64,000 bases of DNA from Marsupella aquatica (lineage: Eukaryota; Plantae; Marchantiophyta), in contig OZ316899.1 in NCBI GenBank assembly GCA_973895155.1, forward strand, positions 16,023,974 to 16,087,973, given 5' to 3'. Numbering within the stretch: position 1 is the stretch's first letter; each line of letters opens with the position of its first letter. This document shows positions 682-30,270 of this stretch, one piece after another. The position numbers were made by a program, and so were the translations under genes. A model generated the notes under the pieces. The model saw nothing but the letters and a program-made list of their open reading frames with translations. It had not been told where the DNA came from and did not search any database.

Positions 682-997
682 CACATACAAACATGTGTAT
701 ATGTTCACTTTTATAAAAATATTACTTGAGTTATTCTCTAATTGGTTTCAAGAGCTATGGAGTCTTTTGACTCATTCATATATGGATGTCTCAATTGTTG
801 GTTGAGAGACCTGGACTTATATCATTCTCATTGATTTCTTTTGTGTATGATAGAATGCATTTGTTCAGCCAGATATTGAGGTATTATCACGAGCTGTGCG
901 ACAACATCTCCTTCAGGCCATGGATTGTAGGCAAGGGGGTCAACCTTTTGAGGATATGGACATTCCACATGAACTACCTAATGCTACTTAAGAAAGA

Positions 998-3900: not shown

Positions 3901-4119
3901 ACACGATTGAAGACCAGTGCAACTAGTGTCATTAGTTCCAATTGGAGAACCTCAGATCCATTTGCATTTCCCCATCATTTGGAGCAATCTTTCTATCTTC
4001 CTTATCCGAATGACCCAGAGTGGTCCATTGTTATGCCTTACATCCCTCGCTCATGATCCATTGTTCAAGACAAGCCAAGTGTAGTTGTAGTAGAGGATTT
4101 GGACCCCTCATTACAATAG
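998..4119 (+). pseudogene. CACTA TNP2/TnpD-like transposase (Transposase_21, DUF4218, DUF4216 type), decayed
   Basis: Motifs IHACVNDCVLF, CPVC, LGLASDG, SVWPV, NIPPW, DVYLQPLIEELQKLW, HDLPG/FGY...ACPTC, LDPMHIEGNV, KTHDYH, GPVH..WMYWVE, EGSIAE, YGKIEEI, FKCKW. GT-AG intron ~2034-2167. Premature stops end at 1561, 3024, 3504 and 4056. Confidence 0.92.
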
Positions 4120-4309
4120 ATGCGGCCTAGGTAAATCCCCTATATGTTTTATCTTCATGGATATTATATACATTTTTTCATGTCATTTCACATGTGCCCA
4201 AAGATTCATTGGTTGGATATAATTTTGGATACAACTGTATATAGTCCCTTGACACAATCCAAATTGCAATCCCTAAGTAATATATGCATTTGAGTCACGT
4301 CCATTTATT

Positions 4310-4815
4310 CCCGATACCATTTCCCATGCTTAAAACAACGGAATCCCATTGGAAGACCTCCTTGTTCAAATCTTGACCTCGAACCACATATATTCAATCT
4401 AAACCCTTTCGGACTCAATTTCTGATACTTGTAGCATCGGAATTATTTGTGATAAACACTACTTTGGAAAACATTTGCGATACCCACCCTATCGGAAGCA
4501 CTAAGCGATACATTTTTCATTGCAATATTTCCATAATTTACTCAATCGGACATCGAATATGATACTTCAGGGATCGGAAATTTAGTAACAATTTTTAGAA
4601 GAGGGGTCCGATAGTCAAGACATCGGATATGTTCCGATATTAGGAGTATTGCAAATGATGTCCGATGTTTTGGGAATCGGATACTGGGTTTCCGAAGCTA
4701 TGGGGATCGCAAGTTCCGATACTTTTGTTAACAAAAGTTTGCGTAACTCTGGCTATCGGACGCCTGTTTCATGTTTCAGCGGGAGCATCGGAAAATGAGC
4801 AAAAATGTACTAGTG
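4310..4815. repeat. CACTA-1 right subterminal repeats and TIR
   Basis: Many direct and inverted copies of (T)CCGATA / ATCGGA, ending in TAGTG at 4811-4815. Confidence 0.8.
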
Positions 4816-6000
4816 GTGGTCCTGGAAGGGGCCTCAAGTAAACTGTCTCTAACTGTTGCTGATCGAGATGCTGCCCACACCTATTACCTACATAACCATG
4901 TACAGGTTGCACCATGGCTCAGGTACATGATAACTACATCATTTTGTTTATGGTTGTCTCAGTGTTCAGTAATGTAGTCTAAATGTGTTGTCACAATATG
5001 AGAGTATTTCTTTTATGATATCTGACATTGTTCTTTGCTTGCTTGGAAGGTTGTATGAGTCAGAAGAGGAGGAGCGAAGGATAGAAAGGGAAGCTGTTGT
5101 AAGATAGAATAATGCAGAATGACGACAAGGTAGATGTCAAGCAATGGCCTATCCTGCTGAATTTTCTTCCATTCCTTTTGGAGTGTGGTTCAGGGATACA
5201 ATACACAAGGCTAACCTGGATGACAATGAGGACAAGTTGTTGTTGACTGCAATTTCTTTTCCACCAAGCCAGAAGGCTTTGTCTCACAATTCAATGATGG
5301 CTTTTGGGAACCATTACAGAGTGATGCGCTGCAAAGATAGGAATGGTGAATGGCGTGAGATGTCCACTCTCAGGGACACTGATTGTCAAGGATATGCTAC
5401 ATTTGATTCAGGGGCAGCCAAAACTTTCCATGAGCAGATCAGGGACGAAATTGGGGTGAATTTGGCCAAGCTTACATATGTGGGGGTTCTGACACAGATA
5501 CTTGTGCTTGATTATGGACCTTTGTTACATTTTGAACCAACCATAATCTTGAAGGCAAAGTGGGTGCAGTCTAAGTGGGGAGAGGAGAGGTCTAATCCAT
5601 CAATGAAACATGATGAGACTGGCCTATGGCTTGCCAATTTTAATATGCCTTATCCCTCAGCTAAGAAATTGGATTATGTCTTGCCCAATCAGATTGAGCA
5701 GGTTGTCTTCTACCCAAACACAGCCAAGGCCTCTTGGAGACATGTTCTCCATGAGGAAGGGAGGTCTCAACGAGTTGTTGAGGGTATAAATGACCTTGAG
5801 TTTAATGATATTGTGGATCGTCATGAGGCTGTTGAGGCTGAGCTTGTTGCAGCAGCTAACAGACGAGTGTCCTTGGATGAAGGAGAAATTGTAGTTTTTC
5901 AGGAGATGGCAGTGTTGACAAGAAGTGATAGTGATGATGATGATGTCTGGGAAGATGAAAAGATTCAGATGAAGAGTGAGAATGTGCCTCTTGGGGCAGG
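4816..6000 (+). pseudogene. C-terminal part of the CACTA-2 transposase (DUF4216-like)
   Basis: VVLEGA...AAHTYYLHNHVQVAPWL, then MMAFGNHYRV, TFDSG, YVGVLTQILVLDYG, LKAKWV, YVLPNQIEQVVF, WRHVL. Confidence 0.8.
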
Positions 6001-6049
6001 AAGTACTGATTGCTCTTTGGTGATAGTGTTTTTTATGCAGTTTTGAATT

Positions 6050-9048
6050 GAAATGCATGATCGGTCTGGGGTGAAAGGTTCCGAGAATGCCTATGAGGCA
6101 CAGAGGAATAGGAACATAGCAGCCAACAAAGCTATACTTGACCGGTTTGTAGGAACTGCTACAAGTGATTTAAAGTATGTACTCTATCCCTATATAGAAT
6201 TTATGCCTTGACTTTATTACTAATGGTTCACACTCATGACATTGTCACAATGATTGCAGTTTACAGGGAGAGGCAAGGCGCAAAAGTCTATCTAAGTTGT
6301 CAAAGAAGATTGAACAAAATCAGCCGTCTATAGCAAAGCGTAGGAGTTCACGATTACTTGGCATGCACTTGGAGAAAATCATGGAGAGTGACAACAGTGG
6401 GAGTGATGGGTCTAAAAACTCAGTTGACACAAACTATGGGACAGGTTTAAGTGATGGCTTTGAATCAGATGGTGTTGAAGAGCCATGTAAGGTAGGAGAA
6501 GACTCACTGTCAATGTTTACTTCAATTGAAGCTAATTGTATTAATTGTCCAATTTCTGTATATCTTGATTTGGTGCTAGTGTTACTAAATACTTGAATGT
6601 GCAGTGTTATATATCCACAGGCTCCCCGACAGTCAAGAGCTAAATATTATGTGGATCCTAGGACAAAGGAAGTGAGTTTATGTAAGTAATTATTAATTAC
6701 CTCACTTGCCATGAGCTTGTTTTTGACTTGCCAAGTGATTCCCGAGTTCATAGATTCTCACAATTGCAGATTGACTGTCACTAGTTACATTAATGTTTGA
6801 CTTGCTAACAGGATCTCTTTGGTTGGTTGTGGTAGTGACACCCTTGCCAAGAGCATCTACTCGTGATCTGGATGATGGAATTGTCACAAAAAGATCAGAA
6901 CAAACATATGTACGACAATCATCTCATGCCGCAAAGAAGCAATGGGAAGAGAACACAAGCGAGCATCGCAAGTTGGGCATGAAGAAAGTTGCAATCACTG
7001 TATGTTGCTTGTGAAAGATCATGTTTGTGATTTATTGTTTGTCCTCTGTTATTTATTGTTTTCTTATGATGCATTGTGTGCAGATTTGGAACAATGATGT
7101 TGATCCTAGTGATCCATATCGGGCACGTTGGGGAGATGATCTTCGTGCTGTGTGTATGGATAAACTGAATCCTTCTATCCGTGAGATTAAGAAGCAAGAC
7201 TCAGGGGTTCTTCTTCATGTTTAAGCTGTGTTGGAGAATGATTGGGAGTATCTGCAGGGGACTCTGTCAATGAAGAAGTTCAGGTCTCATTGTTCAACAG
7301 TAATGAAAGCACAGCGAGCAAGACTCCACAAACATTTTCAGGAAGGTGGGAGACGCCTGGACAAGAAGCCCCCTGAGAATGTGAAACCTGAACATTGGAA
7401 GGCATTGTGTGAGTGGTGGCTATCTCCAGAAGGGATGTCTAGCATTGACAAGATGAAGTATGCAAGATCTAAAGTCATTAATCCATCAAGGGTTGGACGA
7501 GGTGGCTACCGTGGGAAGGAGTCTGACTTTGTAAGTATACAAGATTCATTTACAGTATTATGAATGTTTGTAAACAACAAGTAGGCTTACAGCATGTGTC
7601 TTCCTCTGTTTTAGCAATTGGTATGCAAAGAAGCAAGAAGCTTCATTCTGATATGTTTTGTTTGGTTTCATTGTTCAAAAGAGAAAAAGAGGGGAAAGTC
7701 CACCTCTATCAGAGTTACGTTCCAAAGATGATAGAATTAATCCATCAAGTGTGAGATCTGTCACAGGACAGGCCACACCATCTCATCAGAGAGGCAGAAA
7801 GTCAATTGTGAGTATAGTTCACAAACCCAATTTGTGATTTTCAAATTGCCAAGTTTATGTGATATCCACTAACTTTTGTATGATTGGTTAATGGTTGCAG
7901 ACACCAATTTCCAAGTCTATGATGGGAGACAATACAGATTGTGATGAGCGTATGTTGACTAAAATTTGGATGCAATAAATATTGGGATAAGTGCTGGGAT
8001 AAGTGTTGGGTTTGACAAAATAATAATTGTTTTGGCAAAATAGAACCACAGTGAAGATGTGGAAGAAACCAGAACTGTCCCACTTGGGCTGGGACCATCT
8101 TCAATGTCCTCACGAATGAGTTCAGTTCTGAAAAGTCATTCGGGTCTGAAAAGTCATTCAGGCTGTAGTACTTCAGCTATGAAACTAGACTTTTTGGTGG
8201 ACTTGACCAAAGAAAGTATGTTCTTTACAGAGGACAATTAAAGTAGTGTAATCAAGCATGCATGACTTGGATTAGTGAATGTTTTCTAATGTCTTGAAAT
8301 GTTTATGGGCAGTTGAAGATGATCAGGGGATTGATCTCAATGCTGATGCGGAATACAATAATGTTGACCCAATGATTGTGAAACAAGAGATCAATGAAGA
8401 AACAAAGGTGGTATACAGTTTGCCTGCGCAGCATGATCAAGCAGGAAAAGTAAGTGGTGATTATTAATGTGTTCATTATCCCATGAATTTGTAATGTGAA
8501 CCTAGTAGGGCATGTTTATGTAAGTTGTCTCACCCTAATCTGTTTTGCAGAAGATAACTGAAGTTGTGACACCTGAAGCTATTTGTACAAGGTCATCTGA
8601 AGAAGCCATCGTTGCAGAGTTTCCAAAGTTGGTACCTTCACCCTTTGTCTTCAAGGTGAGCAAAAGCAAATTATTGCTTTCAATACATGTCTTATTCATT
8701 TATTTGCTATAAGTTGTCATTAACAAGCCCAATGAAATGATTGTATGAGTCTAATGAAATGGCTGTGTTATCTTGTTGATGTGTGCATGACAGTTTAAAG
8801 TAGGAGACATGATGAAATTGAAGTCACCAATGAAGCAGCAGGTGATTGCTATTGCAAAAATTGATGGAGTATGTGGAGTTGATCGATATTGTGACAACCC
8901 AATTCCTATTGGCTTCTTGATTGTCAAAGTTGTTTCTATTTTGAATGGAGATGCACCTCTCCAAGAAAAGCACCCAAAAGGCTTAGTAGCCCTCAAACAT
9001 GTGAAGGGGCACCCATTTTTGTGGAGGCAGAAGTTAATGAGGAAGTAG
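6050..9048 (+). pseudogene. Multi-exon TnpA/Tnp1-like CACTA accessory gene; exon boundaries approximate
   Basis: Exon ~7084-7530 has RARLHKHF...PPENVKPEHWKALCEWWLSPEG...RVGRGGY (Ptta/En-Spm Transposase_24-like). Last exon ~8790-9048 has IAKIDG...PIPIGFLIVKVVSI..GDAPL...FLW (Tnp1-like). AT-rich GT-AG introns lie between. Confidence 0.65.
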
Positions 9049-9328
9049 GATTTGGTAATTGAGTAGTGCTTGCAATAGAGAATCCATGTGATTGAAGAAG
9101 TATATGGGTTCCTATAGGTAGCATGGATACTATTGTGCAACTATAACTCTCAATTTTTGGATTCCCATTTGTGGATCACTCTAGAATTTTGTTGGTGTTT
9201 GAAATGATGATTTACTAAGTTGTATCATGTGTCAAATTTTGTTGATTCTTTATATGAGACATATGTGAGATTTTTGTTATTGTGAGTGTGTACATTTTAG
9301 GGTTTAGAACTCTAAAACTAATGACTCT

Positions 9329-9885
9329 AAATCTAGTGATCAATACACTCCAATGTACTATTATTCAAGTTCTATAATACACCCAAATCTAGTGATCAAT
9401 ACACTCCAATGAACTATCATTCAAGTTTTATAATACACCCAAATCACTATGATTGCAGTGATACTAGACTATGGTCATACTACTATAACTATAGTTATCA
9501 AGGATATGATGTTCGTCACCCATTTTAAAGTTGTAAAATAGCAATCTATAACACTTAAGATGTAGTCATATAGCAAGTAATAATGGATTGAATGATACAT
9601 CTATAAATAGGGTCATATAACAAATAACAAAAGCTCTACAATTACTACTTCAATTTGAGACATATAACAAGTACTTAAATTGCAAAATAATATATCTTTA
9701 CTACATCAAACTTAGTTATATAACATGTAATAAGTATGTCAAAATATTTCATGTTATCACTTCAAATTTAGTGATAGGACAAGTCAAAAAGGTGGTTTGG
9801 TTATGACTTCAATTCTAGTCATATAACTAGTATTAAATGTGTGACACAAAGTATCTTTCAGACTCAAAATCTAGTCATATATTGG
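9329..9885. repeat. 56-bp tandem duplication plus GTCATATAAC-like subterminal repeats of CACTA-2
   Basis: Unit AAATCTAGTGATCAATACACTCCAATG...ATAATACACCC at 9329-9384 and 9385-9440. GTCATATA-like motifs near 9474, 9565, 9612, 9659, 9716, 9818 and 9875. Confidence 0.7.
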
Positions 9886-9918
9886 CAAGGGCTATATAAT
9901 TTCTACTTGAATGCTAGT

Positions 9919-12900
9919 TGTCGCGTCCCTAACCTGGGCCTTAAATCCAGTTTAGTTCCATGGCGCAACCTCGACCACCAGTAGGGGTGAGGGTTTGGGC
10001 AAGGAGGTGTGTAGTGGCCCCGTTTAGCCCTAAGTCAGGCTAAGTCGATAAACTTACTGGTATAACGCTTACGCAATTTGTACTAGTCATAGGTATATTT
10101 ATTTTCCACCGCTGGAATTTTCCCTTAGTTAGTGACTCCGACTAACTCCCGACTTGGGGCTTTCAAGCCATCGATGCGATAGAACCTTGTGACATGCAAT
10201 GGGTGGTAATCCCTACCATTAGTCCGCACCTGGTACGTCCCTTGAAATGGCGCCTTTGCCCAGACAAAGCATACACACAACACTAGTTACTCCCGGAAAC
10301 ATTAGAGGGAAAAGACTACATTTACTCAGCGAAGCATCAGTTTACATGGTTGACTTGACTTCTAAGGGGGTCAGCAGGCCCAACAGCAGTCGATGCCCAG
10401 TCTCTACGAGGCCCTGCCTTGCACTTGCCCAACAAGCTCGACTCTGGCTCTCACTCCTTGGTGCGCTCTGACCCTACCCAGGCTGGGACTTCCCGTGTCT
10501 CGCCTTTTCTTCTGCCGAGATAACTAAGCCTTCTCCCCCTTCCATAGCGGAAGAGGAAGCCTAAATACTACGTTTGCGGAAGGGAACCGGAGGATACTAC
10601 CTTCCGGGGCAATACCTACTGACTAACTACCCTCTGACTAACTGGCCGTGCCGTACTGACTGGTTGACCGTTGACGACAAGAGTGCTAACCAGAATGGCA
10701 GCAGCTAAGCCTACTGAAAAAATCTAGTCCGTTGATGGACTCCATCCTAAGCTGGCCACTCCTAACTGATTTGGTCCTAATTCTTCCTATTGCCGCTAAT
10801 CAGAGCCTAATGACAGCTATTCTGTCGTTACGCTTAACCAAAGATGCCGCTGACTCAACTGCCTTGCGCGGCGCCTGCTTCCACCCTTCGCTAACCACCC
10901 CTTACGTGTGTGCTGTGGTCGGACCAGGGTTTGTCCCCCTGTCGGGGCGAGACCTCAAGCCGCCTTGATCAGAGGTGGCCCAGGTTTTCCCCGTTGGAGG
11001 ACAAGCAGGGCAACGCAATCCTGCAAGGCCTTGTTGTCCCGCACCGCCTCCTCCGCCTTGTTTGCAGCTTCATCGGCCTCTGTCTGGAGCCGCGCTACCT
11101 CCAGGTTGAGTTGGTAAATGGAGTCGCGATGGGTCTGGTCCTGTGCCCGCAATTTATCCCGCTCGGCGGAGAGACTAGCTACCTACTGAGCTGCCTGCAG
11201 GGACTGTTTGTTGAGGTCGGTCAGGCTGGTAACCCGAGCCGAAGATTTTGAGCGCAATTGAAGCACGGTGTCGTCCAGCTTCTTGAGATCTGCTTGCGCT
11301 CCGCTCAACTCCTGCGTTAGTCCATCCCTCTGTTCGACGGTGCGGACTAACTCCTCGCGGCGGGTAGTGGCCTCCTCCTCGAGGTGCTCTACCAGCATTT
11401 GGAGGCGCCCGATCTCATTCCCCTTCGCCATGAGTTCTTCTTCCAAGCGGCTTATGATCCGTGGTTGGTGCTCTAACATGAAGAAGGCTGGTTGAAAGTA
11501 CGCCGAGACTTGTTGTCCGATGTACGTCGCCAGCTCCCCAGACATAGTCTGGCTAAACTTCTGGACCAGATCGTAGGCCATGGTCCCCGGGGCTACTTGG
11601 TAGTCCTCCATCCTCTCGGGTACCGATGGTTCCTCGGGCGGGGCAACGATCTCCTCCGTAGTCTGCGTTGGGGAGGGGAAGGTTTCTTCAGGTGGTGGAG
11701 GGATTGGGGGTGGTTGTACCGCGGGTAGCGGAGGCTCGAAGGAAGGGGGCGACGGAATTTCAATAGGAGGAGGTGACGGAGTATTAGTCGGGGCTTTCGG
11801 CTCGGGGTTTGGCCGAGGAGCGGTAGTCCGCGCGCTTGGGGTTGCCTCCTCTGGGATGGGGGTGACATTAGTCGGGGCTGAGGTGGCCATATTCTTTCCT
11901 CTGGCCTCCCGCCGTGCCTTGTACCAGGCGAGGATGATGGCGATATGACTTCCCAAGTAAGTCTTCCCCCCAATAGCCATACCACCCTGAGCCCGCTTCA
12001 GCTCCCCCGAGAATCTTCGGTAAAAGAATTGGGCCCAGTTCCGCCGTTTGAAGTGTTCCACCTGCACAATCGTGCAGAGGGAGATCTCGGATTGTGGCTC
12101 AATCATGTGTAGGGTAGTCCGTATGAAGTTAAGCCGCTCCATGCAGATTAAGTTGGTGCACGACCCCTGCTTGTATCCGTTGTCCGTCTTACCCTCGAGT
12201 TTGAAGTGCTGAGGTGTATACTCCTTATCCCAAATTTGGAGTTCAACCGGCACTGGCCCGGTTGGCAGGCAGAAGATCTGTGCCAACCGATGCTCCGTGA
12301 GTGATAAGGTCTGCCCTGAAACCTTAGTGGTCGATGCGTCAGTGTCAAAATTGGAGATGAACTCACAAATCTCCTTTGGCCCGGCGGCGCACGGTCTCCA
12401 TAGCAAGTGAGCGAACGGCTCCAACTGATGCTCCTTGAGATAATCCGTGTGTTCGAGTTTCTTGATCGCAATCTAGACTACTTCGGGGACGCGGATCACC
12501 TGTAATAAGTTGGACTTCGGCTTATCCGGGGGCTGTCGGGTCTGGTTGGCCGGGGGGTTTGCCGGGGCAGGTGCAGGCACGACGTTGGTTCACGTTGTTG
12601 ATTTGGGGGCCGACGTCTTCCTTGGCCGCTTACGAGAACACTGCTCGAGTTACGGACTAACTCGCTTGGAACCCAAAGAACACTCTGTGTTGATCACTGG
12701 TCGGACTTGGGACCGGTTCGGAGGTACGCCGGTGGTCATCGGCTGAGGTGCTGGTGGTGTTGGGGTGGCCATATCCCAGTCGAAGGCGTTGGAACTTTCC
12801 CCGAGGAAAGTAAGATTATGCGCCGCTTCCCGTTGTCTGCTGATGTCTTCTTGGCGCTTTTCGGCTGCAATTTGCTGGTCTAGGTACCCCGGAATCTTGT

Positions 12901-13748
12901 CGAACTCCGCTTGAGTAAGCCGTTGGCTGCCCTTCAGCCTAAAGAACTTTGCTGGGACCTCAAGAATCGCCTTTGCTACCGATCTAAGCCCTTCCTTGCT
13001 GAGATATAGCTCGGTGATGTAGTCTCACAGCTTGTTGTAGCTGGAATCCCTGGTGATGGCTGTCTTCTCGCAATTAACCAGTGCTACCTTGGCCACCAGC
13101 TTCGCGTATCTCGGGACAAGAGTACGAGTAAGTCTCGGAGAACTTAGCACCTACCTCGCCAAACAAGGTCCAAAATCCCAAGGCTGTAAGGGTCATACTA
13201 ACCTTGTAGTTCGGTTCGTCGAGTCCGCGTTCCCACCCGGCTGGTCCTCGTGCTTGTGGAGGCCTTGCTCGTCCTGACTAAATCTTGCCACATTCTGCTC
13301 TTATCCCTCGATAATCTCCTTGTAAAGGTCAGCTTGATTCGAGCAAAAAGGCGGGTGAATGGCAGCGTCTGCGAATTCCAAAAGGTAGAAATGAGGAAAT
13401 GGCTCGCAGCGCCATCGGCTCCTCTCTTATGGAGGTGCCAGGATGAGCTCGAGCGTGAGGAGGCAAGGCCGTTTTGGTTATCGATAATGAGCTGAAGTCG
13501 CCGCCTCGGTCCAAGCATGATTCTCCTAACGGATTTTTACTCCACCGCCACCACCGTACCTCGGTCGCGCGTAATAATCCTCCTCCTAAATTTGTAATCA
13601 TTCGGTCGACTTAACCTACTCCTAATCTATTCATAATGGCAACAGATGGTTATACGTGCTATTCTACGCTACGGCTACGGTCCTAATGACCGTATAAAAC
13701 CTAATCTACGACCTGGGTTCGGTTAAGTGACACGTTACCCGTGTCACA
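9919..13748 (-). mobile_element. Family A giant solo LTR (3.83 kb) containing a protein-coding ORF
   Basis: On the minus strand it starts TGTGACAC and ends TAAGGC...GACGCGACA, resembling the family G LTR ends (TGTGACGC...TAAGGC...GACGTGACA). Internal ORF is homologous to that of the family G LTR. Flanking 5-mers differ (CTAGT vs GTCCA). Confidence 0.75.
10955..13200 (-). pseudogene. LTR-encoded accessory protein of family A (N-terminal domain, Pro-rich linker, conserved core, coiled coil)
   Basis: ORFs 11183-12424 and 10955-11152, plus upstream AILEVPAKFFRLKGSQRLTQAEFDKIPG, which aligns with family G ALLRLPDEVFNIPGTIDLQRHHFDHIPA. Confidence 0.75.
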
Positions 13749-14015
13749 GTCCACCAGTAGGGTTATTGTGGATCTCTTCTTGTTGATTGGATCCTCTACA
13801 CATATGCTTCTTGTTTATGCGCCATGTTAGTTTGGCGTGGGCGCTTGATTCTATAGGAGTGATCCGGGTTTGCAACCGGTCATTTTAGTTGTGCTACATA
13901 TTTCTCTCCTGGTGACATTGGAGTAATGCCCAACACACCATGGTGAGTGCTTGTGTTGCTGACAGGGACAGATTGCCCTTAGGGTTAGTATATAGATTAG
14001 GTTAGGTTGGTCACC

Positions 14016-15093
14016 ATGGATTCTTCTGGTGCTGTTGGGTTACCCAATGGACGACGGACCGGTTTCACTCGGAGTGGGGCGCAGTTTCAGCCAGCTACAT
14101 TGGTAACAATCAGTAGGACAACTTCAAACAGTGATTCTGATGAGGACTTTGTGACCGGTTCTCCTCGTTATTAGGTGATTGCACCTTTGTTGTGGTATAT
14201 GGAAGAGATGTACAGGGCTACAAAGGGCCCAGGACAATACTCTGGTGCAATTGGCACGATTGATGTGGATGACTTCATCCAGGAGTTTGATACGTGGAGC
14301 AATATGCAAACATTGCGTAACGCCACGTTGTTTACCCCTTTCATGGCATGGAAGGGATTATTTCAGCATTTGGAGAGGCCACCCATGGATGACTACCATG
14401 AGTTTCCAAAATGCTCATTTGGTTGAGATTGAGGCATGGAGGCAGCATTGGTCACCTAATTACGTGTCCATCACCTATGGCACTAGTGCGGCTGCTCAAC
14501 CCATTGCCACAGCTGCTACTTCTTCTAGCAGCACTAGCTAGAGTGGCACACCATCCACCAGTAGCACTCCAGTAGCATCCACCGCTACTCTTACCGGTGT
14601 GATTGTGATAGGGACTAGAGCTGCACCTACATTTAACCCTCTGGTGGAGTTCTTTGAGGTACTGAAGCAGAACTATCAGGGTGTGAGAACTGATAAGTTG
14701 AAGGGTCTCCAGGAGTTTCAGCGCAAGGCTGGAGAGAGTCTACGGGAGGTGTACACTCGTATGCACAGATTGATCATTGTCACCAAGGGAGTGACAGAGG
14801 CTCAGATAGTCCAATTTTGGTATGCAATTCTGGACAGAGAGTTGTGACGTAGAGTGAGAGATGTCACTCTGCTTAGGGATGCAAATCCCACATTAGCAGT
14901 TGTTTTTACCCTTTCTAAGCGCATTGAGCTCAATATGATGAATGAGAAGGTGGTGACTTTTGGATTTTCCAAGGAAGCACCAAAGGCTGCATCTACATCC
15001 ACACCACAACCTACTACACGGAAGAGCCAGAGGGAGAAGCCTATTGCACGAGAGTCTACCAGCCAGATACCTGTGCCCTCTTATGCTAGATAG
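14016..15093 (+). pseudogene. gag of family B
   Basis: YSGAIGTIDVDDFIQEFDTW and FQRKAGESLREVYTRMHRL (Retrotrans_gag-like). Contains stops and frameshifts. Confidence 0.75.
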
Positions 15094-16079
15094 CAGTTAG
15101 GATGTTGAACCTGTGGTGGGGATCATGCACAAAGATATTGCCCAGATCATAGAGGATCAGGGGGAGCATCAGCGCCTGATCAGCAACAATGTGATCATTG
15201 TGGAGCTCCTGGACACACCAAGGATAGGTGTTTCTCACTTCACCCTGAGTTACGGAGGGGAGAATCCCGTACACATGATCAGGGAAGAGGAGGAGGAGGT
15301 AGAGGTGGTGGACATGGTCATGGCATGCCACATGCAGGGAGACAGGGAGGTGACACTGCCCCTACTGTAACCATAGATCCAAAGGATGCTAAGATTGTTC
15401 AATTGGAGCAACAGCTAGCTGCCATGACTAGTTCCCAGGTGAGACCTACTTTTGGTGATGGGGCATCTACATCCTATGGACGTTTCACATCCCATGGTCC
15501 TTCCACATCTTATGGAGCCGATGGAGACCTTGCCACCATGGGATTCATGTGTGGCACTGCACATATTGATGCATCAACAACTTTGACACGTGAGGCAGCC
15601 AAAGCTCTTGAGCCCCGAGGAGCAATAGTGGAGCTAGATCCACAGAGGGGGGATGCACATCGGTATACAAAGCTTCCTCGGTCTTTTACATTGTCAGAGA
15701 CAATTCAGACTGTCTCTATGAACCCGGTTTGGACAAACCCTGGCATGGGTAAGTTGGCAGAATCAGGTAGTGATGCAGCAGGGATGACAGGTACCTTGTT
15801 GGGGGCGGCTACTACCATAGTGCGTACCCCATTATTTTCAGCGACAGACATGCTGAACTTGGGAGTTGGTCCTGAAGAAGTGTTCAGATTGGCAACTACA
15901 CTCTGTGAGGACACTCCAATTGTTGCTTCCCATGCAAAAGCAGCTTGCAGTGTTGAAGCAGTAAGACCATGCCACCTACTGCTACTAGTGAGACATGGAA
16001 TGCAGTAGCAGCGAGGTTGGTGGATTTACCAGCACACCCTGCATTTGAGAGGACTAGGTTTAAACCTAGTGTTGTGTCA

Positions 16080-16425
16080 TTGGATAATCGAAGTGGTATC
16101 TTCAGATTAGTTGGGCCATCTGAAGTAGTATACCAGTCGGAGAGAGTGTTACTGGATACTGGTGCTCAGCCCTTGATGTTGGGAAAGTCTACCATACGTG
16201 GATTAGGATTGCGTCCAGAGGATTTGGAGGATTGTCCCTTTCCCATTCAGACTTCATTGGGGGGACCTACACCTACATAGCATATCACCAGGAGACCACT
16301 TGATTTGAGGATTCAAGAAGGTCATGCAACAGATAGCTCACAGATACAGGCACGAGCTATTTTAACTAAGGCATAGTCATATGATGTGTTGGTGGGATGT
16401 ACAGTGCTCTACACCATGGGATTTA
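16080..16425 (+). pseudogene. Aspartic protease of family B
   Basis: VLLDTGAQPLMLG active site and downstream YDVLVG motif. Confidence 0.8.
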
Positions 16426-16841
16426 TTTTTTATTTTTGGGATGAATCAGTGTCATATAGACCTGATTGGCAGTCAGGAGATGCTTGATTGAGCAAATTTC
16501 CAGTGCAATTTAGTGGACCTGTGGGAGGCCCTAAATCTACACCATTATCTTTGGCAGCATTCAATGGTGTGATTACTAGACCCGATGATTTGATTGAGGG
16601 TAATGCACATGCAGCAGATGTTTTACCATTGGAGGAGTCACATGAGGAGCAGATCATGCAGGGATTACTTGTTGGCAGTGTGACGCCACCAGTGTGGGGC
16701 ACTGGACAGCCCTTGCCACACGCAGCAACACAATTGGTACATGACGCATGGCGTCATGCTTTTACACCATAGTCAAGGGCACAGCAATCTCATGCAGATG
16801 GGCCGGTGACTCTTTCACCATTGGATACCACTCCTATTGCT

Positions 16842-17800
16842 TGGCAGTATCCGCCGGAGGGTATTTTCTTGTTGGATCTGTTTGGTGGGATTAGCACTGG
16901 ATTGGCTACTCTTCTTTAGGCATGAATTCTTGTGCGTTGTTATTTGTATGTGGAGACAGATGAGACAGCACGGAGGGTCTCATTGCAACATGTGGCTATG
17001 TTGGTGGATAGATATCCACAGTTGCTACCAGTGGATGTTGTTCGTGGTTATCAGCACTACCTACTGATATTTTATTGTTGGGGGCGGATCATCTGCATCA
17101 TGTTGGTCCCATTGATTTGGTGATTGTTGGTTGGCCATGTCACGGTCAATCTAGAGCTGGCATTGGGCATGGACTTCATGATCCATGCTCTGCATTGTTT
17201 TGGGAGATGTTACGGGTGCTGCATCATCTCTAATTACATCAAACACAGTCTCTTGCATACATTTTGGAGAATGTGCCATTGTTAGGTGATGATCGTTGTC
17301 GGATTGTTGTCAGTGTTCACCAGGTGAGATCTTGGATTAGACCTGTTGTGTTATTGGATGCTGCACGGGTGGGTTCTTGTGCACATCGTCCACGCTTGTG
17401 GTGGACTAATTTGATCCCATGTGAGGTGCTGAAGTGCGCATTTGACAGCATTCCACGCTCACCAGCCTTAGTGGTGGATGATATTTTGGATCCAGGGCGT
17501 CGTGCACAGGGTGTGACCCAACCTGATAGACCTCCATTGGCAGTGGTCAATGTAGTTGGGCGTCCACGTTGTGCATTACCCACTCTTGTGAGCCACTCTG
17601 CTTCATATGCATTCAAAGCAGGTGGTCCTGGACTTGTGTGGGACACAGCTCTCCAATAGTTAGTGGAGCCTACTGCTGATGAGAGGGAGCGTGCTATGGG
17701 ATTTTTGAGAGGCACCACTGCAGTTGACTCGGTGTCAGAGAGTTCACGCTGCCAGGTCCTTGGTCAAGCAATGGATTTGAATTGCTTGACTTGGATTATC
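16842..17800 (+). pseudogene. C5-cytosine DNA methyltransferase domain (DNMT3-like motif style) embedded in the pol polyprotein
   Basis: Motif I LDLFGGISTG (16872-16901). Motif II YLYVETD. Motif IV IDLVIVGWPCHGQSRAG, with the catalytic PC at 17135-17140. Motif VI ILENV (ENV 17267-17275). Motif VIII AHRPRLWW (from 17381). Motif IX ERERAMGF (from 17681). Motif X LGQAM (from 17759). One frameshift ~17060 and several stops. Confidence 0.92.
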
Positions 17801-18099
17801 AGCTTGGGAGTAGCTGAATAGTTGCGGATGCGCTCTGCTGGTATTACTGATCATCCATTAGTGAGCTTGCGGTCCACTAAGACAGTGATGACCACCACTG
17901 GGGGCAAGCAGACAGTCCATGGACCTATGGTGGGATTGGCCAAGGCTGGACAGATTGTTGAGTAGGAAGGGATTGCTCAATCTATTGCTAAATAGCAATC
18001 ATCGGCTATCTCTTCTACCCTACAAAAAGATATTAGGGATTTGGTGGAGAGTTGGGAGCCACAGATTGGTCCTAAGCTGACAGGGAGGAGAGACGTTGC

Positions 18100-19470
18100 A
18101 TGCATCGATTCCTGAAGAGTTATTGGAATTGTTTTGCATTCAACATGAAGGATTTGGGGACATTGAAGGGCCCTGGTATTCAGATTGAATTGGCTAGTGA
18201 CACGCCAATCTTTTGTAGACCATATCGTTATAGTGACATGGAGAGAGCTCTGATTCAAAGCAGAACTCAAGATTTGTTGGAGGCTAGATTGGTGGAGATT
18301 TCATATGGGGAGTATGCATCTGCCACAGTGATGCCAGCCAAGAAAGATGTGCATAGAAATTACACAGATAGGCGCATGTGTGGTGATTACAGACCTATTA
18401 ATCGCCACACAAAATTTGATCAATATGCCATGCCCACACCTGAGGAGATCTTTGATGTTGTGGGGCATGGAAAGGTTTTCAGTTCATTGGATCTGAGGGC
18501 AGGGTACCATCAGCTTCCAATTAGGCATGCTCACAGGTCCAAGACAACGTTCTGGGGGATTGATTCTTATGGCAAAGATCATTTGTATCAATGGTTGTTC
18601 TTACCATTTGGGTTGGAAAATGCACCAGCTGAGTTCCAGAGAGTCATAGATGAATCCTTGCAGGTTTGGATTTTGTCAGATGTTATATTGATGATATTTT
18701 GGTCTATTCTTCTACTGTGGAAGAACATCAGCAGCACTTGCAGATTGGGTTGGAGAAATTGAGAGCACATGGGTTGAAGCTCCATCCTAGCAAGTGTAAG
18801 TTCTTCCAAGACCAGATTGAGTATTTGGGCCACACTATATATCCAGGGCGATTGGATGTACAGCAGACTAAAGTGGAGGCCATTACACAGATTCTTTGTC
18901 CTACTACTGTGAGCAGAGTTTGTGCATTCTTGGGATTGGCGAGCTACTACAGGAGGTATGTTAAAGGATTTAGCCAACTTGCTAAATCTTTAACCATACT
19001 CACTAAGTTGGATCAGGAATGGACTTGGGGTGATGACTAGGAGCATGCCTTTCAGGAGTTGAAGCAAAGGTTTGCATCATCCCCTATTTTGAGAAGACCC
19101 ATTTCAGGCAGACCATTTCAGCTACACACTGATTGGTGTGGAGTAGGACTTGGAGCAATGCTGACTCAAAAAGATGACGAAGGGCATGAGTTTGTTGTGG
19201 CATATGCCAGTAGATCCAACAATTTAGCAGAGGCTAAGTATAGTTCTTATGAGGGAGAGTGTTTGGCAGTAGTGTGGGCTGTGGCACACTTCCGCTGTTA
19301 CTTGTTTGGTAATCCTTTCACTTTGATCATTGATCATCAGCCTCTCAAGTGGTTAATGGAGTCTAACAAGCTTACTAGGAAACTTGCACGATGGACATTG
19401 TTGTTGTAGGAGTATGATTTCCAGGTTGTACATAGACCTGGAAAGGTGAACTTGGATGTAGATGGGTTGA
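18100..19470 (+). pseudogene. Reverse transcriptase and RNase H of family B
   Basis: RMCGDYRPIN, FSSLDLRAGYHQ, LPFGLENAPAEFQR, YIDDILVY, FLGLASYYRRYV, LHTDW, EGECLA, DHQPL. Confidence 0.95.
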
Positions 19471-19789
19471 GCAGCAACTCATGTACCAGTCAGCAGGATG
19501 AGACAGAGCCAGATGGCATGATGAGTCAGATAAGGAGATGGTGCCAGGATGGCATGCATATGCCTTTCTTTGTTGGGTGCCAGCATACAATGGATCTTTG
19601 GACTCTACCTCATTGGATGGAGTGGATGATGAGTCTTCAAATGTGGATGTTAGTGAGGTAACTTCTGGACAACAAGATATTCACAATGATGTGAGAGTGT
19701 TGGAATATCTGCGCAGTGGTTCTATTGTTGGCAGTGTTGATGCCAAGGAACATGACAGGGTTCTACAGAGAGCCAAGAGGTTTTGATGG

Positions 19790-20940
19790 GAGGGAAACCA
19801 TCTTCTAAGAGTACTGCATGATGGTAGGGTGTTGGTGGTACCAAAACCATCACAACGAGTACATTTGGTGCGACATGCGCACGAGGAGTTGGGTCACTTT
19901 GGTGTGAAGCGCACTTACAGCTTGCTGCAGACATAGTATTGGTGGCGTGGTATGCACACCCATGTCTAGCAGTTGATAGCTAAGTGTGTGGTATGTGATA
20001 GAGTGAGAGCATCATTTAATTCTCCCACTCCCCGGTTGCACCCGTTGCCGATCATGGGTTTGGGATATCGTTGGAGTTTGGATTTTTCTGGTCCATTACC
20101 TCTTACCCAACGTTAATCAATATGTTTTGGTCATGATGGAGCACTTCTCCAAGTGGATTGAGCTAGTGGTGTTGCCAGATAAAGCCAGTGGAGGAGTTGC
20201 TGCTACATTTTTGGATCGTGTACTCAATCATTTTGGAGCACCAGCTGAGGTGTTGACTGATAAGGGAATTGAGTTCTATGGAGAGTTTGAGAATTTGTGT
20301 AAACAAGCTCTGATTGATCATCGTACTACCTCTCGTGATCATCCTGAGGTAGATGGATTAGCTGAGAGAGTTGTGCAAATTGTGAATAGAGGATTGCGTA
20401 AGTATGGCTTGCAGGTTGGTCATCTGGGAGATTGGGATCTCCAGCTACCTTGGTTAGCTATGGGCTACCGTTTCAGTCGGCAAGCATCATTTGCATCCTT
20501 CTCACCTTACTTTTTGCTCTATGGTAGAGAGCCAAATTTGCCAGCAGCTATTCGTCGTGATGCTGCACCAGTTGTGAACTTGGATGATCCTGATGTTTGG
20601 GTCAAGGTGTGTTCAGAGAGAGCACGGGTATTTCAGAGAGTGATGCCCATGGCTTTTGACAACCTTGCCATTGCCTAACATCGTGATACTTTGAGGTATG
20701 CCACTATTCGTGGAGGAGGTTACCGTGCAAGCATTTAACGATTTCATCCTGATGATTATGTTTATTTGCAGCAGACAGCACCCACGACACTTGATGTGAC
20801 TATATGCCGAACAATCTTACGTGTGCGTGAAGTGTTGCCTTCTGGTGTCCTGATGTGGAGGGACGCAATGGTATGGTTTGGAAGGATCATGTGCGCAACT
20901 GTGCACCATGTCACCTTCCCAACATTGATGGTACAGTAGA
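19790..20940 (+). pseudogene. Integrase of family B
   Basis: HAHEELGHFG...CVVC zinc finger, WSLDFSGP, VLTDKG, GLAERVV. Confidence 0.92.
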
Positions 20941-20974
20941 TCCAAGCTTGGCACAAGTTCGTGCTGGCTTTAAA

Positions 20975-21114
20975 TGTATGTTGTGTGGATCGGCTCAGGG
21001 AGCAACTACTTGTTGATTTGTGATAAGTGTTCTAGAGGATGGCACATGTTGTGCTTGACACCACCATTGCAAGTGATTCCTAGTGGATCATGGTTGTGTC
21101 CTTAGTGTCGGTGA
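20975..21114 (+). pseudogene. PHD zinc finger at the integrase C-terminus of family B
   Basis: [45 protein letters not shown] gives the C4HC3 pattern with conserved W. One frameshift ~21011. Confidence 0.85.
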
Positions 21115-21562
21115 ATCCGACTAGTTATCAGTTGTGTTCTCTTGGAAGATATGGATTGCAGGTAGGTGATTGATGGGGCTCACTTGCACCCGGCCTCCTG
21201 ATCTTCACACCTAAAAAGGTTATCAACCTTGTATAACTCATGGCTAGCTAGAGTTAGGGGACCTTACTCCTAGCTAGGGGGGCTATTGTGGGTTTTGGAC
21301 ATGTGTGGACATGAGTTCCACTTGTATTCCATTCTCTTGTGTTTGTGATGTGGTAGTGTGACTATGTCTGGATGTATGTGACAAGCAATGTATGTTGTGT
21401 AGCGATGTGTATGCGCAAGACAGGAGACTTGTGGGCAACAGGACGTGGCGCTAGCAAAGGCAAGGAGCCAAGCTGGTGACACACACTAAGGACTTGGACT
21501 AGCTGAGAGAAATTCGGCCGCAGTCGGGCCCGACCTTAGCTGACTTGACCTTTGGCTGTGAT

Positions 21563-21947
21563 GAGATATGTGGGGCCCTATCGTATCATACGATGGGCCC
21601 ACAAGGATAATCTGGTTTCGGTGGTGTTGGAGACACCCAAAGAAATGGGCGTGGGAAAAAGCTACCATGTTAGCCCGCTCAAGAAGTTTGTCAAAGATGA
21701 TGATCCCAACCGGGATCAGGTCTTGCGTTCGGACGCCATGCTGGTGGAGGACGTTGAGGAGTTGGAAGTGGAGGCAATTATGGACCACCATTAGAAACGC
21801 AAGTTGGGAAGGCAAATCTTAGAGTATTTGGTGAAGTGGGCTAGCTATGATAAGGCCGAGAGTACTTGGGAACTGGAAGAAAATTTGAGTAATGCCTTAG
21901 AGATCCTTGGAAGCTATCGTAAGCGAAGCGGCCTACCGCCGTTGTGA
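21563..21947 (+). pseudogene. Inverted fragment of family C integrase C-terminus and chromodomain
   Basis: GPYRII...YHVS.LKKF...EVEAIMDHH*KRKLGRQILEYLVKWASYDKAESTWELEENL; closely matches the reverse complement of 28669-29050. Confidence 0.85.
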
Positions 21948-22088
21948 ACTGGTACAGGCAGTTGTAACTACCTATACCTCCATGAAACTCCTGCCAAGAG
22001 TCTGGTGCTCAGCTATGAATCCTCTCAAATGCTCTCATCGTCCTTCCATCCTTTTCCAATCCTGTCTGTCCTTTGAGCAGAGATCTTG

Positions 22089-27000: not shown

Positions 27001-28668
27001 CAAGCTCAACAGACGTTGGTAAATAGGTCAGTGATGGGTCCTCCGGATGCCATAAGTCGGAACCAGAACCCACGCCCACTATCCGTCCAGGATAGCTCCT
27101 TCCTTGGGCGCGGCCCGGGTTCCCCCTCGTACCTATCCATCACCAACTGACCGCCGTAACCTCAGGACATGCTCATGGCCCAATTAGCGTAGCTTGTCCT
27201 AAAGCTTGTCCCAAGCTTGTCTCAACACGCCGGGACCAGAATGGCCCCGACTCTAACAACGGCTCCCGTTTTGCCCCACTGATGGTCTAGGGACCGAGCG
27301 CCCTTGGGACTCAGCCTCCATACCTACTTGACCTTTCCTCCCCAATGCAAGCTCCCTTGGGAGGCTGAACGCGGCTTGGCTGCTATTCGGTAGGATTTGG
27401 CAAACGGGCGAGCTAACACCCACAAACCACAAGAACCCATGGCACCCTCAGACCCAGCTGAGCTAAGGAGGGCGTATCTCTCCTCAAGAGCTTTCCAACG
27501 CACCTAAGAAGTCCTCCAATAGACTTCCCATTGGGAAGATATCGCCATTTCCGTTTGGCGGTTTCCCTTAGTGTCGCGACCGTCGCGGCTCACGACTTCG
27601 CCTTTAGCCCCCAGGGAGACACTACTCCCCTCATATATGCTTTTGGAGACCTGCCACCCCCGGACCAGCTTTGGTCCCTAAACATTTGGCCCCCAACCCG
27701 GATCCCATCGCGCATAATGGGCGCGCCACCAACTGGCAACGCCCATAACTTTCTTGATAGGCACCCACAAGCGGAGTGCCTTAGCCCGTTGTGACCGGGC
27801 CGACCCAGTGCTCATGCCTAGGCCCTCAGGTCTGATCGCCGCTCGGGGCCCCCGACCGGCCCAACCCGGATCGGGCCACAACTTGCGCCCCAAGCGTCCA
27901 TTGCCAATGGCGTCAACTCCATTGTGCCTTGGGCCCAAGAGGAGCTCACTCCAAGCCCTCAGAACTCAAAGCCCATCCGACGGTCCGGGCGGCCATCCTT
28001 GAGCTCGGCCCATTTCCCCTTGACCCGACCAGCCATAGGCTAGTCCAAGTCCTTAGTTGGTGTCCCCAGCTTGGCCCCTTGCCTCGCCAGTGCCACGTCT
28101 CATTGCCCACAAGTCTCCCCATGCTAAGTCCTCCCCGGATGGCCTATCCGGGCCTGGACCATAAGGGAGCTTGGCGTCGGAGTCAGGGACGCCGGAGCTA
28201 AGTGTTAAGGTAGTCGAGTTCCGCGACTTGCACCCCCCGCTTAAAAATGGTCACGTCCGCGTGACCTAAGTAAACGTTCCAACATGCCTAGACCACTTTG
28301 GGCCTTAAAATTTTTTATGAGGTAACAAATGGTTTGCCCATAAGGATGATGCAAACCAAGTTGGTATACGCATTCCAAACTTAGGAAATTCCAACCTATC
28401 CCACTTATCCAAGTAGGATGCCAGTCCAAACGGGTAAGCTAACTCCAAACTCGTCGGACCCATTATCCTCCCCTTGGGGCGGTCCCCTTTGGTTTGAACT
28501 AGCTCGCCCACAGATGTAGGGCGGGCACCATCAACTTCCACTCGCAAAAAGCCAATCGGCCGCCCAACAACCTCTAGCACCAACGCAATCCAAATTTATC
28601 CTTAAGAGGCCAAGAGGAGTGAAACTAGGATACAACTCACAAAGGTAGCTACAGTTGCCTGTACCAGT

Positions 28669-30270
28669 TCACAATGGCGGTAGGCCGCTTTGCTTACGAT
28701 AGCTTCCAAGGATCTCTGAGGCATTACCCAAATTTTCTTCCGGCTCCCAGGTACTCTCGGCCTGGTCGTAGCCAGCCCAGTTCACCAAATACTCTAAAAT
28801 TTGTCTTCCCAACTTGCGTTTGTAATGGTGGTCCATAATTGCCCCCACCTCGAACTCCTCCGCATCCTCCACCAGCATGGCGTCCGGACGCAAGACCTGA
28901 TCCCGGTTGGGATCATCGTCTTTGACAAACTTCTTGAGCCGGCTAACATGGTAGCTTTTGCCCACACCCATTTCCTTGGGTGTCTCCAACACCACCAAAA
29001 CCGGATTATCCTTGTGGGCCCATCATATGATGCGATAGGGCCCTGCATATCTGGGAGCCAGCTTCCTACTTATGTTCCCGTGGTATTGCTCAGGTCTCAA
29101 CTGCAACCAGACGCTCTCCCCAATTTCAAAGCTTACCTAGCGTTGATGTTTATCCCCTTGCTCCTTGTACCGACTTTGGGCAAGGGTCATACCCTTGGTA
29201 GCCGCTTCCACAACTGGGCGCCGCTCTCGAATAAAATTGTCCGCAGAAGGAACCTTGCTTTCCGTCCGCCAAGCTTCAGGATTTATAAACCAGGAGGGCG
29301 CCCTTGGCGTCCTCCTTGTGGCCAACACAAACGTCGCAAACCCCGTCGCCAAATGCTTGGTCGAGTTATACCTAAACTTGGCCCAATCCTTCTGATTGGC
29401 TGTCACAAAGTGACGCAAGTAGTCCTCCACGATACCGTTAACCCGTTCTGTTTGGCCATCTGTCTCATGATGATACGCTGACCCCTGGTCAGGTCCGTTC
29501 TGGATAACCGGAAGAACACCTTTCAGAAATGGCCTGTGAACTTGGTATCGCGATCGGACAGGATATGCAACGGCAATCCCCACTGTCGAAAGACATTGTC
29601 AAATACTAGACCGGCAACCTCTCGGGCCAAAACCATCTTTGTAGTAGGCAAGAAATACGCCATCTTGGAAAAACGATCCACAATTGTTAAGATGGAGTTA
29701 CTGCCATGGGACTCAGGTAATCCAACAATGAAGTCCATGGAGATAGACTCCCATGGAGCCGTAGCTACTGGTAAGGGTTGCAGTAGTCCTCCTTTTGCCC
29801 TATAGACCGTTCAGTTCTTTTGGCATGAGTAACAACTTTGCACGTGTTGAAGGACCGATTGCTTCATGTCCGGCCAATACACATCTCGCAACATGCTGCG
29901 ATACGTGGCGGCTTGTCCTCCGTGCCCTCCCCAGGGCAAGTCGTGGTACTTTTGCAGAACCTATAGCCTTAGAGACTCTGGTATGTACACACGCCTCTGC
30001 TTGTATCGCCATAACTGGACATTATGCGTTGTATCCAACCCCAACGATACGTGCCTTACCTTGCCCTGGCTACCCCCATTGCTTTGCCAATCCTTAACTA
30101 ATCTGTCATCCCCGTACGCCGCAGCCAGAACCTTTGGCCACTCGGATTCGAGCATCGTGATCCCATTGACACAATGTTGGTCCTTACGCGATAACGCGTC
30201 CGCTGCCGTGGCGGACTTTAAAATCAAAATCCGCCAAGAACATCTGCCAACACATTTCCTTGGGGTTTAG
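28669..30270 (-). pseudogene. Family C RNase H end, integrase and chromodomain
   Basis: SMDFIVGLP, IVDRFSKM, SDRD, TDGQTERVN, GPY; chromodomain EFEVGAIMDH...EYLVNWAGYDQAESTWEPEENL. Confidence 0.92.

Follow-up and report, generated by a model that had tools for sequence, protein, structure and literature searches.

The stretch of Marsupella aquatica DNA analyzed here (contig OZ316899.1, positions 16,023,974 to 16,087,973; 64,000 nucleotides, hereafter the window) holds a degenerate Ty3/Gypsy-type retrotransposon with a C5 cytosine methyltransferase in its coding region. Three-frame translation, Pfam scans of open pieces and tblastn give the coding order Gag, zinc knuckles, protease (PR), C5 methyltransferase (DNMT), reverse transcriptase (RT), RNase H (RH), integrase (IN) and PHD finger over 14199-21114; the Ty3/Gypsy domain order Gag-PR-RT-RH-IN, with a DDE integrase, is present. 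Comparison with relatives sets the coding start at the Gag ATG at 14199, and not at 15969, where the original prediction, made from the sequence alone, had begun the element. Relatives are cited as proteins (P numbers) and as loci (L numbers) from a metagenome scan, in which 80 of 307 confirmed loci were kept and all locus searches were seeded on the methyltransferase domain. The features of the window copy are as follows.

13742..13747, + strand: tentative 5' terminus TGTCAC, start of repeat A; the sole TGTCA[CT] within 9000-14200; repeat A of L024 and L029 begins TGTCAC
14199..15102, + strand: Gag, capsid-like part from the start codon; tblastn with Marchantia P0003; one frame switch near 14411
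15103..15231, + strand: two CCHC zinc knuckles, read in translation and matched in related loci
16050..16484, + strand: aspartic protease, DTG at 16155-16163; PF13650 E 0.0043, below the cut-off; 50-54% to its counterpart in related loci
16842..17815, + strand: DNMT3-like C5 cytosine methyltransferase, motifs I-X unrearranged; PF00145; 81% to P0002, 66% to Marchantia Mp_4g09160
17993..18001, + strand: conserved in-frame stop TAG, then CAA TCA, end of the first open reading frame (ORF1); common to siblings, L024, L026 and L029
18085..19037, + strand: reverse transcriptase; PF00078 (RVT_1) E 5.3e-10 and 7.4e-16
19041..19478, + strand: RNase H; PF17917 (RT_RNaseH) E 5.3e-34
19673..20970, + strand: integrase with HHCC zinc domain, DDE core and C-terminal part; PF17921 (Integrase_H2C2) E 1.2e-5; PF00665 (rve) E 5.4e-10; tblastn with P0039
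20975..21114, + strand: C-terminal PHD finger (C4HC3) and final stop; PF00628 E 8.4e-9 at 21007-21102
21276..21282, + strand: polypurine tract AGGGGGG; the same G run precedes the first repeat B (B1) in L033, L042, L041, L054, L047 and L059
21283..21422, + strand: repeat B ending GACA, 3' terminus; about 70% to both B copies of L033 and L042

The window copy is dead, as the original prediction held: besides the stop at 17993 it carries 20 in-frame stops, distributed over six single-frame pieces, and nine frame switches. Residues 1-71 of Marchantia P0003 align from 14199 at 76% and residues 49-564 at 44%, while a Pfam scan of Gag (14199..15102) gave no match. Protease and methyltransferase motif I were correctly predicted to share a frame, as residues 51-413 of P0002 match 15969-17057 in a single tblastn segment at 68% identity. 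The methyltransferase domain is interrupted by stops and by a single frame switch near 17050 that parts motifs I-II from IV-X.

The methyltransferase domain and its relatives

The methyltransferase motifs span 16869-17782 and lie in canonical order between the protease DTG and the RT, just where they had been predicted: motif I (LLDLFGGISTG, 16869-16901), IV (GWPC, 17129-17140), VI (ENV, 17267-17275), VIII (RPR, 17387-17395), IX (ERERAMGF, 17681-17704) and X (LGQAM, 17759-17773). The proposed comparison with PF00145 gave matches both for a 73-aa open piece (E 1.1e-5, 25.4 bits against a cut-off of 22) and for 17012-17830 with X at its three stops (E 9.8e-7). Among solved structures (PDB sequence search), the intact domain of L024 is closest to DNMT3A, DNMT3C and DNMT3B (E 5e-8), with M.HaeIII, M.HhaI and chains 4onj and 4onq lower. 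A model of this domain predicted from a 50-row alignment reached a pLDDT of 92.9 and a pTM of 0.91 (prediction without an alignment gave a pLDDT of 34), and matches DNMT3A/B with an E of 5e-19 and a TM of 0.68 at about 21% identity (human DNMT3A).

Of 66 loci, 65 keep the motif VI Glu and 63 the catalytic Cys, whose three misses resemble frame-shifted rows; the Cys, the ENV Glu and the motif VIII Arg are conserved over distant lineages. Motif IV itself varies in the family between WPCQ and WECQ, the latter occurring in the far clade L040-L080 and in 50 of 111 matched representatives. We computed the ratio of nonsynonymous to synonymous substitution rates (dN/dS) for ten pairs. Between L024 and L029 it is 0.11 for the DNMT and 0.05 for the RT; between the window and three near-clade loci it is 0.15-0.17 and 0.07-0.12, although dS to the window is near saturation. 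The DNMT ratio is 0.11-0.19 in five between-lineage pairs and 0.28-0.30 in two saturated distant pairs, and was not computable in one; dead copies compared within a family, in two pairs, reach 0.31 and 0.94. Judged by these ratios, the methyltransferase is under purifying selection. Sequence and predicted fold mark the domain as a true C5 methyltransferase of DNMT3-like type that forms part of a Gypsy-type element, an identity of which we are nearly certain, and in intact members it looks functional.

Searching with 17012-17830 (X at the stops) returned 38 longer proteins, the best being P0002 at 81%; the named matches were Marchantia polymorpha (66%), Calypogeia fissa (64%) and Sphagnum (50-53%). 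The L024 domain, searched without a profile, returned 273 clusters at E <=1e-30, with Closterium, Mesostigma and Scenedesmus among its named relatives. No Klebsormidium-named protein appeared among the matches of the protein searches with the window or L024 domain. The same domain order, including the full methyltransferase-RT linker, recurs in 59 of the 80 loci, and a PHD finger follows the integrase in 25 (none in L060 and L074, both long enough to hold one). L024 is unbroken over both of its frames, and Marchantia polymorpha holds members with unbroken Gag-PR-DNMT frames. In sibling contigs from four public runs, coverage of the domain is like that of its flanks, so the siblings carry it too. 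The alternative that a single Gypsy copy recently took up a host or foreign methyltransferase gene, by nesting or by capture, has next to nothing left to it: the shared order, the even sibling coverage, the congruent RT and DNMT trees and the intact fused ORFs all contradict it, and the intact relatives refute it. The original prediction was thus right to reject a nested gene.

The RT tree (support 99) and the DNMT tree (support 94) both unite the window with Marchantia, the Sphagnum-like loci, L024 and L029 in a single clade. These were quick and FastTree trees of locus subsets (23/67 and 10/39 rows) drawn without host DNMT3, DRM, MET1 and CMT rows. A scan of viral contigs yielded 30 loci whose matches were all short and weak, at 27-53% over portions of the domain, and shows no viral donor of the methyltransferase.

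Other branches of the family differ in layout. A second architecture, RT-RH-DNMT-IN-PHD, is found in 30 of 147 representative proteins (P0124, P0132, P0160 and others), one of them from Scenedesmus sp. PABB004; chlorophyte members are not mentioned in the text of the 2018 paper that described such elements (PMC5890265). These proteins form their own clade in both the RT and DNMT trees, which implies that the enzyme either shifted within Pol or was captured twice. One of this type, P0165, has a G-patch between methyltransferase and integrase. In the far clade (L040-L080) the linker to the RT is open, and the elements end in A...B-A-B with 4-bp duplications as elsewhere. P0040 shares 93% identity with the L024 methyltransferase; its label assigns it to a metagenome-assembled genome of a Candidatus Obscuribacterales bacterium, but its source is likely a eukaryotic contig binned into a bacterial genome.

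A conserved stop between methyltransferase and reverse transcriptase

L024 consists of 1369 open codons, one TAG and 1047 open codons in the same phase, and L029 has the same break. The window counterpart of this TAG is the stop at 17993, in the context TAG CAA TCA, and P0002 and P0280 terminate at the corresponding residue. The Calypogeia protein terminates 78-82 residues past the domain, as do four of the five full-length Marchantia models (the fifth, P0010, ends 18 past it). Among near-clade loci with a full linker, 25 of 26 have TAG or TAA at this one site (L025 being the miss), and CAA comes next in 24 of the 25. L024, L026 and L029 read TAG-CAR-YYA although their linkers are unlike that of the window, and four lineages with otherwise dissimilar linkers all have CAR after the stop. 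Intact linkers of 327, 441 and 450 nt each keep the phase and contain a single stop. In the sibling contigs, 17993-18001 shows no variant at >=5% in the three covering runs, while the nearby stop at 17963 is missing from 98% of the aligned depth in X1 and X2, a depth that is not copy number. The original prediction spoke of stops in general; the one at 17993 does not reflect decay and is a family feature, fixed among siblings.

The methyltransferase is in frame with the protease and, in the near clade, split from the RT by this stop; in far-clade L041, and also in P0032 and P0130, it is continuous with the RT. Since the in-frame stop is fixed among siblings and present in three other lineages as well, the enzyme is to be assigned to the Gag-protease ORF. 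The predicted polyprotein fusion is therefore right as to the protease side, and needs amending in that the stop separates the domain from RT, integrase and PHD.

RT, integrase and PHD likely need readthrough of this stop. CAR-YYA after a stop is the plant readthrough signal of the tobacco mosaic virus (TMV) type, with about 10% readthrough in vivo (PMC2754532). This Type I context is present in the window, L024, L026 and L029; the Sphagnum-like family has it in part, as CAA-CCC. Of the codon pairs in the ORFs of these elements, 0.3% are CAR-YYA. In L024 the first Met lies 117 codons past the stop, inside the RT, which leaves readthrough as the preferred explanation. RNA structure 3' of the stop is inconsistent, with z scores of -0.06 (window), -0.64, -1.37, -1.50 and -2.60.

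Several observations pull the other way. The largest near-clade family, the Sphagnum-like one, follows its stop with CAA-CCC-ATG and not the full CAR-YYA, and this ATG could permit reinitiation. CAR-YYA also occurs at one of the 20 decay stops of the window (15091), so the motif alone is no proof. Of 30 far-clade loci, 16 have no stop at the site and seven have a common TAG at a Gln codon, which shows that deamination hot spots can mimic a shared stop. The loci, moreover, include several duplicates and are not independent; they amount to four lineages, not 29 events.

A rival account keeps the same element and enzyme but has RT-integrase-PHD arise by splicing-out of the stop, by reinitiation or from a second promoter. 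The ATG two codons past the stop in the Sphagnum-like family fits it, as do the public gene models P0007, P0008 and P0033, which fuse both frames, presumably by predicted introns. Elements with separated ORFs are described, namely Ogre and Bianca (PMC6317226), and for Tca2 the passage of the gag stop is left open in the text of PMC2194720. The late first Met of L024, the phase-true, single-stop linkers and the CAR retained in four lineages with unalike linkers all argue against it, and we consider this account unlikely.

Under the readthrough reading, the first frame would encode Gag, protease and the DNMT3-like methyltransferase and end at UAG-CAA-UCA, where low-rate readthrough would yield RT, RNase H and a PHD-tipped integrase. 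Protease and methyltransferase would then be made at Gag level and RT-integrase-PHD at a level roughly tenfold less, so that particles would carry the methyltransferase in amounts that match the capsid protein and exceed those of RT and integrase. The TMV replicase offers the nearest likeness, with an in-frame UAG, CAR-YYA and a short to long product ratio of about 10:1 (PMC2754532), and soybean SIRE1 suppresses a pol-env stop (PMC2829016). In contrast to both, the window lineage has its stop between Gag-PR-DNMT and RT, where it would determine the ratio of Gag to Pol and leave protease and methyltransferase on the abundant side.

Termini, PHD finger and a model for the element

Full-length relatives are laid out as A...coding...PPT-B-A-B, PPT being the polypurine tract (L033, L042, L041, L054 and L047), or as A...B (L017 and L025). 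No paired complete long terminal repeats (LTRs) were found in full-length relatives or around the window copy, and no TGG-type tRNA primer-binding site was seen after the first A (A1) in the six loci examined. Repeat A of the relatives begins TGTCA and repeat B ends ACA, of the TG...CA type, and exact 4-bp target duplications flank six of the eight loci with both ends. B1 begins directly after the G run, and the B1/A2 junctions read GACA-NN-T(G/A)TCA in 12 of 12. The TG...CA ends, polypurine tract and 4-6 bp duplication expected of Gypsy elements are thus present in relatives, whereas the window copy has the tract and the CA end only; it has a single B with no A-B pair after it, and another repeat family matches from 21423. 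In L020, positions 5538-5817 hold an A and then a B with no coding region between, possibly a solo A-B left by recombination.

We hypothesize from these termini that the true LTR is B+A and that a circularized cDNA is cut by integrase at the internal CA-NN-TG. Reverse transcription would make a B+A LTR, the cDNA would be circularized, and integrase would make a 2-base staggered cut at CA-NN-TG; a 2-LTR circle would give A...B-A-B and a 1-LTR circle A...B. Some findings sit poorly with this scheme. The alternative product A-B-A...B, which the circle model predicts, was not seen in the scan of locus termini, and the A...B form could also come from recombination between B copies. The L025 duplication matches at three of four bases and L047 has no target duplication; in the window copy, the flank left of 13742 does not match that after 21422, leaving this copy without a target duplication and its 5' end tentative.

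The terminal PHD finger had been correctly predicted: beyond the PF00628 match (E 8.4e-9), all eight zinc ligands are readable over 20975-21108, across one frame switch. The solved structures nearest to the L024 PHD are CHD4, PHF12, PHF21A, KDM5 PHD1, KAT6A, ATXR5, DPF3, UHRF1 and BAZ2. Fingers of these types are readers of unmodified histone H3 tails. The family PHD has a Gly two places ahead of the His, a position at which readers of H3 trimethylated at lysine 4 (H3K4me3) presumably carry a cage Trp. In its residues, then, the PHD resembles readers of unmethylated H3K4, and it is predicted to bind H3 tails unmethylated at K4, by which the integrase would be kept off active promoters.

Of the 147 representative proteins, 41 have both a DNMT and a PHD, mostly as RT-RH-DNMT-IN-PHD, a co-occurrence that favors a functional pairing. 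One account of it keeps the methyltransferase joined to integrase-PHD within the pre-integration complex, where it would methylate the insertion site, or host chromatin lacking H3K4 methylation, much as DNMT3 does with its ADD domain. The enzyme mostly adjoins the integrase in those 41 proteins, the pairing outlasts domain shuffling, and the PHD matches CHD4, PHF21A, KDM5 PHD1, ATXR5 and UHRF1. Gypsy polyproteins, however, are normally cleaved by their own protease, and in the window lineage the two domains lie on opposite sides of the stop, with RT and RNase H between. This position makes integration targeting a likelier job for the PHD than enzyme tethering. The methylome of Klebsormidium nitens, the alga of the 2018 paper, is also ordinary and plant-like (PMC5890265). 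A tether in the style of DNMT3-ADD is doubtful in the window lineage, and we rate the account as quite improbable. The original prediction had paired a writer with a reader: the nearest solved relatives of the PHD are indeed of the unmethylated-H3K4 type, but only the readthrough product would hold both domains in a single chain, and likely just until the protease cleaves it. Writer and reader would likely act at different steps, not as one tethered module.

Taken as a whole, the reading to which we lean, if only by a little, is that of a high-copy Gypsy-DNMT3 element whose leaky stop delivers the methyltransferase at Gag level, whose cDNA is methylated, whose PHD steers the integrase and whose circles are cut by integrase. 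The enzyme would likely methylate the element's own cDNA before integration. How well this working mechanism will hold is a matter of about even odds. CpG depletion was dropped as a sign of self-methylation, the 0.31 of the element being matched by 0.36 in the neighboring CACTA remnant. A bolder version seems to us possible but doubtful: that a green-lineage-wide Gypsy group integrates from att-cut LTR circles, that the leaky stop of its land-plant branch loads each particle with DNMT3 in the stoichiometry of the capsid protein, and that new copies arrive pre-methylated and are placed by the PHD in H3K4-unmethylated chromatin.

Comparison with described elements and the neighborhood in the window

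The kind of element is already described, as KnitGypsy-Dnmt3 or Gypsy-DNMT3 (Klebsormidium, 2018), and the window element is not categorically new; it is a well-supported land-plant member of that kind. KnitGypsy-Dnmt3 of K. nitens has a Dnmt3 domain in Pol, DIRS-like repeats and a Ka/Ks <0.2 (de Mendoza et al. 2018, PMC5890265). The family studied here likewise has an unrearranged Dnmt3-type domain with conserved catalytic residues in a Gypsy coding region, low dN/dS, and A-coding-B-A-B repeats with Gypsy domains; the DIRS-like repeat arrangement is seen in L033, L042, L041, L054 and L047, and the window copy has one B. The published element differs in coming from one charophyte alga, and the text of that paper is without land-plant members, a PHD, a DNMT-RT stop, target duplications or the CA-NN-TG junction, some of which its figures may show (PMC5890265). 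Two features are added to the known kind: a likely leaky stop, by which the methyltransferase falls on the side of the capsid protein, and split-repeat insertions that integrase would make.

Later texts follow the 2018 report: a preprint names the 'Gypsy-DNMT3' of streptophytes (10.64898/2026.05.21.726589) and a 2025 paper places such elements in 'streptophytes' (PMC12344493), both citing it. According to a 2019 opinion paper, land plants such as tracheophytes have no methylase-bearing transposons (PMC6338049); the words 'methyltransferase' and 'Marchantia' are absent from the text of a plant LTR survey (PMC6317226), and PHD-retrotransposon fusions are reported in general (10.1101/2021.11.30.470311). 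Our searches of an open-access library turned up no account of bryophyte members, the conserved stop, the junction or the duplications; subscription papers or figures may hold them.

Self-methylation of cDNA was first proposed in the 2018 paper, where the K. nitens retrotransposon enzyme produced no methylation in yeast, a result that tells against our reading and that its authors deem inconclusive (PMC5890265). The same result suits a different idea, in which the domain persists because of a non-DNA or non-catalytic function, namely to methylate or bind genomic RNA or an RNA:DNA hybrid in the particle. Its place in the abundant Gag-level frame would fit a structural role, and motif IV does vary between WPCQ and WECQ. 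We find this idea very improbable in view of the Cys, ENV Glu and motif VIII Arg conserved in distant lineages, the DNMT3-like predicted fold, and the related SymbioDIRS-Dnmt3 enzymes, which methylate CG in yeast (PMC5890265).

SymbioDIRS-Dnmt3 of Symbiodinium shares the Dnmt3 domain in Pol and the split direct repeats, and differs in its tyrosine recombinase, its DIRS-type RT and, according to the paper, an independent capture (PMC5890265). We rejected a DIRS/PAT-like assignment for our element: rve and H2C2 are present, as are 4-bp duplications, and no recombinase match was found in L024 or L029. Chromoviruses also have a histone reader at the integrase C-terminus, and EpiLTRs have also added methyltransferases, although theirs are sister to DNMT4 and come with DAM (preprint 10.64898/2026.05.21.726589). 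The window element has a PHD and not a chromodomain, and its RT stands apart from the chromovirus-type RTs of the window. Host DNMT3, which is PWWP-ADD-MTase in animals and MTase-DUF3444 in plants (PMC6453930), has the same catalytic fold and motif order; the element differs in being intronless and in lacking PWWP, ADD and DUF3444.

A transposon carrying an enzyme of the type that silences transposons has been a puzzle since 2018, the sole published plant-lineage example being from an alga with few tools. With the unbroken Gag-PR-DNMT frames of Marchantia polymorpha, the question becomes testable in a model plant. The termini predict circular intermediates cut by a DDE integrase, which, if true, would be unusual for an LTR element; if the leaky-stop and circle reading is true, these elements would install their own epigenetic state, and would do so in genetically tractable bryophytes. 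Standard LTR finders likely miss them because they have no paired LTRs, and annotations of bryophyte genomes may list their domains among the host methyltransferase genes.

The window holds other mobile sequences. A degenerate CACTA-type transposase lies at 992-6046, its best named matches among seven being Calypogeia fissa (55%) and Riccia sorocarpa (44%). The nearest named matches of the Gypsy element are liverworts too, and the CACTA matches add a weak pointer to a bryophyte host. A GC-rich insert at 9919-13732 begins TGTCGCG, ends GTGACA directly before the tentative 5' end of the Gypsy element, and contains a 429-codon open frame on the minus strand (11183-12472). At 21423-21973, adjoining repeat B, is a deleted chromovirus-type fragment with SH3_Tf2-1 and Chromo matches that is 91% identical to 28643-29052 on the other strand; its chromodomain lies outside the Gypsy-DNMT3 element. 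Membership of the latter in the chromoviruses was accordingly set aside, a PHD standing in the place of the chromodomain and the Chromo match at 21795-21944 belonging to the next element.

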